From: a virus
Taxonomy: Duplodnaviria > Heunggongvirae > Uroviricota > Caudoviricetes
IMG/VR virus record: IMGVR_UViG_2636415906_000004
Strand: one strand, 5' to 3'
Length of the DNA stretch: 14,821 nucleotides
A program made the translations under genes and the position numbers. The notes under the pieces were generated by a model. The model made no database searches and was not told the DNA's origin. It saw only the letters and a list, made by a program, of their open reading frames with translations. Position 1 is the stretch's first letter. Every line of letters starts with the position of its first letter. Below are positions 10,882 to 11,429 of this stretch, in pieces.

Positions 10882-11274
10882 TTAACAGCCTAACGCTAAA
10901 AATGAAGCGCCGAGACCTGGAGTACTGGCTCTGGATATAAATTTAACCGGGTCGGAACTAAAAGCTGCGCAGGCAATATAACCAACAGACCCGCTATCTG
11001 GTGTGTAGTCTTGTGAGACCAAAACACGCAGACATCGGTTTGGAAATGCAATCGGAAAATGGGTTACCACATCCTGTGCAATGCCTGGTGCGCCGATTGA
11101 GCCCCACTGAAGAATAAAACCAGATGGTAATTTTTGATATCCAGTACCTGAAACAGAAAGCGTGAAGCTACCCATATCAGGTATCTGATTCGTCCCTGTC
11201 CCCACATTCCTTTTTGCCGCTTCTCCCAAACCAACGTTTATGAAAATGCAGAAATAACAAGCAAATGGCATCAT
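10882..11274 (-). CDS. tail-fibre C-terminal variable segment (alternative receptor-binding tip of an invertible segment; no authentic N-terminus)
   Basis: Lies directly upstream of the minus-strand tfa. Its 5' end contains a hix/gix-like site. It abuts the invertase gene. Confidence 0.45.
11221..11246. other. candidate Hin/Gin/Pin-family crossover site (26 bp, TTCTCCCAAACCAACGTTTATGAAAA)
   Basis: About 20 of 26 positions match hixL (TTCTTGAAAACCAAGGTTTTTGATAA, from memory), with a central AA. Located 55 bp from the invertase start and inside the tail-fibre segment. Confidence 0.4.
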
Positions 11275-11300
11275 TCCTGCTTTTGTCAGGGAGATCTATC

Positions 11301-11429
11301 ATGCTTATTGGTTATGTACGCGTATCAACAAATGACCAGAATACCGATCTACAACGCAATGCGCTGAACTGTGCAGGGTGTGAGCTGATTTTTGAAGACA
11401 AGATAAGCGGTACAAAGTCCGAGACCTAG
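11301..11429 (+). pseudogene. pin: serine DNA invertase (Pin/Gin/Hin family), N-terminal 42 codons only
   Basis: MLIGYVRVSTNDQNTDLQRNALNCAGCELIFEDKISGT matches the invertase N-terminus, including the catalytic-serine region YVRVSTNDQ. Premature TAG at codon 43. AGGGAG SD. Confidence 0.7.

Follow-up and report, generated by a model that had tools for sequence, protein, structure and literature searches.

The tail-fibre region of the window (the whole 14,821-nt stretch of DNA analysed here) is very probably a dead remnant of a tail-fibre inversion segment of the e14 Pin/pix type, carried in a cryptic prophage. The initial annotation had described a fossil switch whose site was kept, whose invertase was truncated and whose partner site was lost, and comparison with intact relatives supports this description. 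Continuity with intact Pin/pix loci extends to ~11422 on the right and to 9921/9922 on the left, and three defining attributes of a functional member are lacking: the second of its two sites, a complete invertase, and the constant part of the tail fibre. The features assigned to the region are listed below in window coordinates.

9783-9922, plus strand: HNH endonuclease, N-terminal 46 codons; homology to the intact 116-aa HNH endonuclease stops at 9922
9921-10038, plus strand: last 38 codons of a glycine-rich tail-fibre gene (Sv remnant), corresponding to the 3' end of the gene in locus L007
10038-10448, plus strand: tail-fibre assembly gene (tfa) of the truncated plus-strand cassette; Caudo_TAP, E=7e-22
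10420-10860, minus strand: yfdK-type tail-fibre assembly gene of the minus-strand cassette; Caudo_TAP, E=2e-38
10882-11233, minus strand: silent variable tail-fibre cassette S'v (gp53-like C-terminal domain), from crossover to stop
11221-11246, plus strand: pixR recombination site TTCTCCCAAACCAACGTTTATGAAAA, 26/26 to published pixR; crossover dinucleotide AA at 11233-11234
11247-11300, plus strand: pin leader, 54 nt, nearly identical to the e14 pixR-pinE spacer
11301-11429, plus strand: pin pseudogene, 42 codons and a stop; codons 1-41 equal PinE, followed by replaced sequence
11319-11390, no strand assigned: putative Fis-dependent recombinational enhancer equivalent, the interval matching cin nt 19-90
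11423-11524, no strand assigned: replacement junction and 3' flank of the GmrSD cassette; same junction in loci L010 and L011
11525-13474, minus strand: GmrSD-family type IV (modification-dependent) restriction enzyme; Pfam GmrSD_N and GmrSD_C

Genomic setting of the region

Over positions 9700-11600 the window shows 100% identity to NC_020163.1, the E. coli APEC O78 chromosome, and the same holds for about two dozen other complete genomes, mostly from poultry isolates. The setting in NC_020163.1 is a cryptic prophage between two tRNA-Pro genes, adjoining yejM, with an integrase, yfdP/yfdQ/yfdR (CPS-53-like), many pseudogenes, a lysis cassette, a DUF262 gene and IS2. With a CPS-53-like left half and an e14-like right end, the prophage appears to be a mosaic or tandem remnant. 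The bracketing tRNA-Pro genes lie at 1809-1886 and 17895-17971 of the APEC O78 locus (L001), and in the stretch 13593-14821 of the window the IS2 copy is placed between the GmrSD gene and a DinI-like pseudogene. All 26 complete genomes that contain this locus are collinear over it at 99.8-100% identity and carry it in a single orientation. Searching NC_020163.1 with the site plus the 5' end of pin returned three further matching places.

The recombination site

Scanning the 14.8-kb window with the Din-family pattern TTNTCNNAAACCNNGGTTTNNGANAA at up to three mismatches gave 11221-11246 as the sole match, with one mismatch; the chance expectation is 0.01 per window, and a match occurred in 2 of 200 shuffles. 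Measured against the reference Din-family sites in Table 3 of PMC3241671, the 26-mer agrees with gix at 17/26 positions, with cixL and cixR at 19/26, with hixL at 20/26, with pixL at 21/26 and with pixR at 26/26. The resemblance to hixL at about 20 of 26 positions that was noted at the outset is therefore exactly 20/26 against the published site, and the central AA crossover dinucleotide is indeed in place, but alignment to the known hix, gix, cix and pix sites puts pixR first. An identical 26-mer stands beside pinE in e14 of K-12 (L003) and in a prophage with intact pinE (L002), and the pin-proximal 26-mers of phage vB_EcoM-606R2 (L004) and of loci L010-L013 are identical as well. Many of the database matches to 11150-11429 start at 11220 or 11221, i.e., at the left edge of the site, as expected where variable cassettes are swapped at the site. 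The site is pixR itself, and the precise name for the system is Pin/pix of the e14 type.

The truncated invertase and the GmrSD junction

The distance from the site to the invertase gene, initially put at 55 bp, is 54 nt between the site and the ATG, equal to that in e14. The open reading frame beyond it (11301-11429) matches the Pfam Resolvase N-terminal domain (E=2.9e-9), and its residues 1-41 are identical to residues 1-41 of the 184-aa PinE, 143 of the 184 codons being missing. A full-length serine invertase with catalytic and C-terminal HTH domains (~184-193 aa) adjoining the site is thus absent, with 42 codons left. The 42-codon length given in the initial annotation stands; the stop, however, is a product of the replacement junction and not of a nonsense mutation. 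DNA homology to pinE, which is found in hundreds of genomes and phages, ends at ~11422, and the sequence downstream of this point is shared with GmrSD-bearing loci, so that a simple nonsense or frameshift mutation in pin was rejected. RefSeq flags the invertase as 'recombinase family protein, incomplete'.

The leader at 11247-11300 probably corresponds to the promoter and RBS region of the invertase, and a simple scan of 10800-11600 for the sigma-70 consensus returned no promoter-like site. Rfam searched over the full window gave no hit. The enhancer equivalent was placed by reference to the P1 annotation, in which the enhancer occupies nt 19-90 of cin; over the matching interval, 67/72 positions agree with pinE and 56/72 with cin.

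On the far side of the junction, a perfect hairpin with a 12-bp stem (11476-11505) resembles a terminator, and the GmrSD protein that follows (649 aa) matches PADLOC mREase_IV over its full length with 1418 bits. The pin'::GmrSD junction is base-for-base equal in L010 and L011, two e14-like prophages in which both pix sites, the complete tail-fibre gene and baseplate genes survive, and it occurs in 285 of 5426 complete E. coli genomes, counted as those covering at least 80% of window positions 11234-11700. The alignments indicate that the GmrSD cassette replaced pin 3' of codon 41 (~nt 122), i.e., the 3' three-quarters of the gene. Since L010, L011 and the 285 genomes share the junction, the truncation of pin is older and far more widespread than the lineage of the window.

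The slot just beyond pin varies among e14-like prophages, holding mcrA in K-12 (L003 5751-6584), GmrSD in the window, and an IS3 element with a gene for a DUF6602 protein in L002 (7109-9818). It looks like a variable slot for defence genes.

The left deletion and the partner site

A functional Din-family segment requires two inverted flanking sites, and only one is present in the 14.8 kb. No second site was found in the whole window with the degenerate consensus at up to four mismatches, and when pixL and pixR themselves were searched in both orientations, every other position of the window had at least nine mismatches. For the consensus, the runner-up falls within the GmrSD gene and deviates at 5 of the 18 specified positions. 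Inverted-repeat discovery in the window returned no repeat involving 11221-11246. These scans bear out the initial statement that the left partner site is missing. A left half-site, TCCCAAA, had been suggested near 9794-9800; the heptamer exists, at 9796-9802, but it is located within the coding sequence of the HNH endonuclease fragment and does not satisfy the 12-nt half-site pattern even with one mismatch allowed. It is a chance 7-mer and no relic of pixL.

In intact relatives the partner site is located inside the tail-fibre gene, and the corresponding part of the window is gone. The intact 116-aa HNH endonuclease of locus L008 is followed by the small and large terminase subunits and the portal gene. 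In the window, homology to the 3' end of the 2,280-nt tail-fibre gene of L007 begins at 9921, and the retained piece (9921-10038) gives a weak Pfam match to Gly_rich_2. The two sides meet at a deletion junction at 9921/9922 where they share a 2-nt TA microhomology, and the HNH fragment abuts the end of Sv directly, with the constant 5' part of the tail-fibre gene absent. The fusion of HNH codon 46 to the last 38 Sv codons is the product of one illegitimate deletion. It took out the whole morphogenesis module (terminase, head, tail and baseplate genes) along with the constant part of the tail-fibre gene, pixL and the rest of the plus-strand Sv. A deletion made by Pin acting on a pseudo-site was considered and rejected, as the junction has the TA microhomology only and no pix-like sequence.

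RefSeq labels the tail-fibre fragment at 9921-10038 'carbohydrate kinase', which looks like a mis-annotation, and marks this fragment, the plus-strand tfa and the HNH endonuclease as partial. To the left, between the lysis cassette and the HNH fragment, a gene of unknown function for a DUF6173 protein (9295-9711, minus strand) lies on the strand opposite to its neighbours; it gave no PADLOC match.

Tail-fibre cassettes and assembly genes

Between the two ends of the remnant, the cassettes are preserved unequally: the S'v-tfa unit is complete (10420-11233), and the Sv unit consists of its tfa and the last 38 Sv codons. The plus-strand tfa shares 95.5% DNA identity with the tfa of L007, and the minus-strand tfa is 96-100% identical to yfdK of K-12 CPS-53. 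As first described, the two tfa genes are opposed and overlap convergently by 29 nt (10038-10448, plus strand; 10420-10860, minus strand).

The S'v cassette is 96-100% identical to the cassette adjoining intact pinE in L012, and the crossover, 11233/11234, is where it ceases to be homologous to K-12 yfdL and to many other loci. An annotated minus-strand ORF of 130 aa (10882-11274; Gp53-like_C, E=4e-16) extends past this point to an ATG at 11274 within the pin leader, and the site lies inside the 5' end of this ORF, in agreement with its initial placement in the 5' end of the minus-strand tail-fibre segment. In RefSeq this ORF is given as an intact CDS, 'gp53-like domain-containing protein'. 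Codons 1-14 consist of pin-leader and pixR sequence, with the real cassette starting at the crossover. The ORF is a silent cassette with a fortuitous ATG.

Comparison with known invertible segments

The closest known system is the e14 P segment of K-12, with PinE, pixL/pixR, stfE/stfP and tfaE/tfaP. The window shares with it the pixR sequence (26/26), the 54-nt spacer from site to ATG, PinE residues 1-41, a convergent tfaE/tfaP pair that also overlaps by 29 nt, a silent gp53-like cassette abutting pixR, and a restriction enzyme gene just past pin (mcrA in e14, GmrSD in the window). It differs in the loss of pixL, the constant tail-fibre part and 143/184 pin codons, in its cassette alleles, with an S'v of the yfdL type and a glycine-rich Sv resembling that of P2 prophages, and in its location, being at tRNA-Pro/yejM with a CPS-53-like left half where e14 is at icd. 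The arrangement of pixR, 54-nt spacer, 184-aa pinE and 29-nt tfa overlap is common to the intact relatives (e14 of K-12, L002, L004 and L012). In 50-nt blocks, identity to L012, which has an intact pinE, is 92-100% from ~10401 to 11400 and 88-90% over 10301-10400.

The closest known fossil is the tail-fibre remnant of CPS-53 (KpLE1) in K-12 (tfaS', yfdK, yfdL). Its yfdK is 96-100% identical in DNA to that of the window, its S'v is related, and both remnants have a truncated plus-strand tfa. Both are one-site fossils without a functional invertase, but CPS-53 has lost pixR and pin whereas the window keeps pixR and the pin stub. In yfdL of CPS-53 (L009 4964-4989), the sequence TTCTCCCAAACCAAGGTTTTCGAGAG matches published pixL at 26/26 positions, and through it the cassette is fused in frame to a constant tail-fibre part. 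The homology between CPS-53 and the window ends exactly after the central AA. This break at the crossover dinucleotide means that the two represent one cassette in opposite switch positions: expressed, with pixL kept, in CPS-53, and silent, with pixR kept, in the window. As read from the aligned sequences, the CPS-53 junction argues that the site was a working crossover.

More distant counterparts are the Mu G segment (Gin/gix) and the P1 C segment (Cin/cix), which have the same order, Sc-site-Sv-U / U'-S'v-site-invertase, together with 26-bp sites and, within the 5' part of the invertase gene, an enhancer. Unlike the window, their copies are complete and active, their cassettes are unrelated in DNA, and their sites agree with that of the window at 17/26 (gix) and 19/26 (cix) positions. 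The Hin/hix flagellar switch of Salmonella, which is more distant still, belongs to the same recombinase family and has the same site architecture (hixL, 20/26, central AA), but Hin flips a promoter for flagellin genes, unlike the tail-fibre switches, and hix is not the closest relative of the site.

Inversion in relatives with a truncated pin

L010 (GU2018_CL13) carries the truncated pin together with both sites. We built its predicted inverted junction in silico and searched for it in other genomes. At least 20 genomes match all 600 nt of this query at 100%, including IHE3034, APEC O1 and PMV-1, and 71 genomes cover at least 80% of it. When the 1,929-bp segment of L010 is inverted in silico (L010 2134-4062; L013 2372-4300), the result agrees with the IHE3034 locus (L013) throughout a 5,684-nt stretch (0 mismatches); the two first diverge at an indel in the DUF262 gene, a gene that the L010 annotation gives as frameshifted. 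The junction in these relatives is the counterpart of 11234-11524 in the window. Because IHE3034 and GU2018_CL13 share the identical pin'::GmrSD junction, at least one precise pix-pix inversion took place after the truncation, and because the cis pin is truncated in both orientations, the reaction must have been carried out by an invertase acting in trans. Trans inversion in these relatives fits the reported flipping of the e14 P segment by PinQ, an invertase of prophage Qin (PMC12529663).

The same comparison bears on what froze the window copy. The initial annotation judged the switch to be probably frozen in one orientation; the frozen state holds, given one site and 26/26 collinear genomes, but the truncated invertase is not its cause. 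Relatives with the same truncated pin still flipped, so the window copy was frozen by the loss of pixL and not by the loss of pin.

Among near-identical K-12 derivatives and O157:H7 assemblies, the gene beside pinE is labelled 'gp53-like' in some and 'phage tail protein' in others, a pattern consistent with public genomes having caught the intact e14-type switch in both orientations, as PMC12529663 likewise reports.

A model for the decay of the switch

In order to account for the present arrangement, we propose an ancestor with two convergent cassettes, Sv-tfa and S'v-tfa, one or the other of which would have been joined through pixL to the constant 5' part of the tail-fibre gene. The segment would have been flipped by Pin, whose gene adjoins pixR on the outside, through strand exchange at the central AA of the inverted 26-bp sites, with the aid of an enhancer that lies in the 5' part of pin and binds Fis. 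The occurrence of relatives in both states suggests that the ancestor did flip. Two independent events disabled the copy in the window: pin was replaced 3' of codon 41 by the GmrSD cassette, and in the APEC O78-type lineage the deletion at the 2-nt microhomology fused HNH codon 46 to the last 38 Sv codons. We place the deletion after the truncation of pin since it is confined to ~26 genomes while the truncation is found in 285/5426; this wider distribution suggests that truncation came first. Left over are pixR, the enhancer-equivalent sequence, the 42-codon pin stub, the silent S'v with its yfdK-type tfa, and the other tfa. With a single site, inversion is impossible and the orientation is fixed.

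Alternative explanations

There is a small chance, and we consider it unlikely, that the remnant retains some function, either because the orphan pixR is occasionally paired with distant pix sites by the Pins of other prophages of the same chromosome or because the 130-aa gp53-like ORF is an expressed receptor-blocking anti-phage protein. The e14 chimera StfE2 reportedly has such a receptor-blocking anti-phage role. If the former were true, pairing of orphan sites would lead to prophage-to-prophage chromosomal inversions or deletions.

That the orphan pixR and its enhancer form a live substrate for trans-acting Pin-family invertases, pairing with the pix sites of other prophages and driving large inversions or deletions, is in our estimate very unlikely. 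Trans-acting Pins are documented (PMC12529663) and implied by the inversion between IHE3034 and GU2018_CL13, the window keeps a perfect site and a putative enhancer equivalent, and the APEC O78 chromosome offers three further matches to the site plus the 5' end of pin. Against this, a rearranged junction at the site was found in 0/26 genomes. Furthermore, invertases such as Hin and Gin act through a specific synapse that includes the enhancer and has to form within a single supercoiled domain, and sites that are far apart or in direct repeat are strongly disfavoured.

We regard it as extremely improbable that the switch is still active, with a trans-supplied invertase recombining pixR with some degenerate partner site in the window or close to it. 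Action in trans is real in the family, as PinQ of Qin acts on the P segment of e14 (PMC12529663), two-site relatives that share the truncated pin exist in both orientations, and the putative enhancer equivalent is kept; however, no second site was found in the window, where the best other consensus match has 5/18 positions wrong and the best other match to pixL/pixR at least nine mismatches, the 26 genomes with the locus are all collinear, and the constant tail-fibre part needed for an inversion phenotype is deleted.

The idea that an A/T-rich intergenic or coding stretch resembles a recombination site by chance and that the 42-codon ORF is spurious, which has nothing but the short length of these features in its favour, can practically be dismissed: the 26/26 identity to pixR, the conserved 54-nt spacer and the 41/41 residues shared with PinE exclude it, the same arrangement stands beside intact pinE in many genomes, and the expectation of such a match is 0.01 per window.

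Implications

The reading of the region as a decayed e14-type Pin/pix segment assigns it to a system that is already known; it is a case of ordinary prophage decay and nothing new in kind. Its value is that of a clean worked example, in which the breakpoints are defined to the base and in which K-12 CPS-53 and the window show opposite switch states. Comparison with the relatives shows that these switches can still flip once the cis invertase is gone but become frozen when a site is lost. This distinction between site and invertase is useful when annotating 'dead' invertible segments, and it bears on the recent claim that tail-fibre inversions in cryptic prophages contribute to phage defence (PMC12529663).
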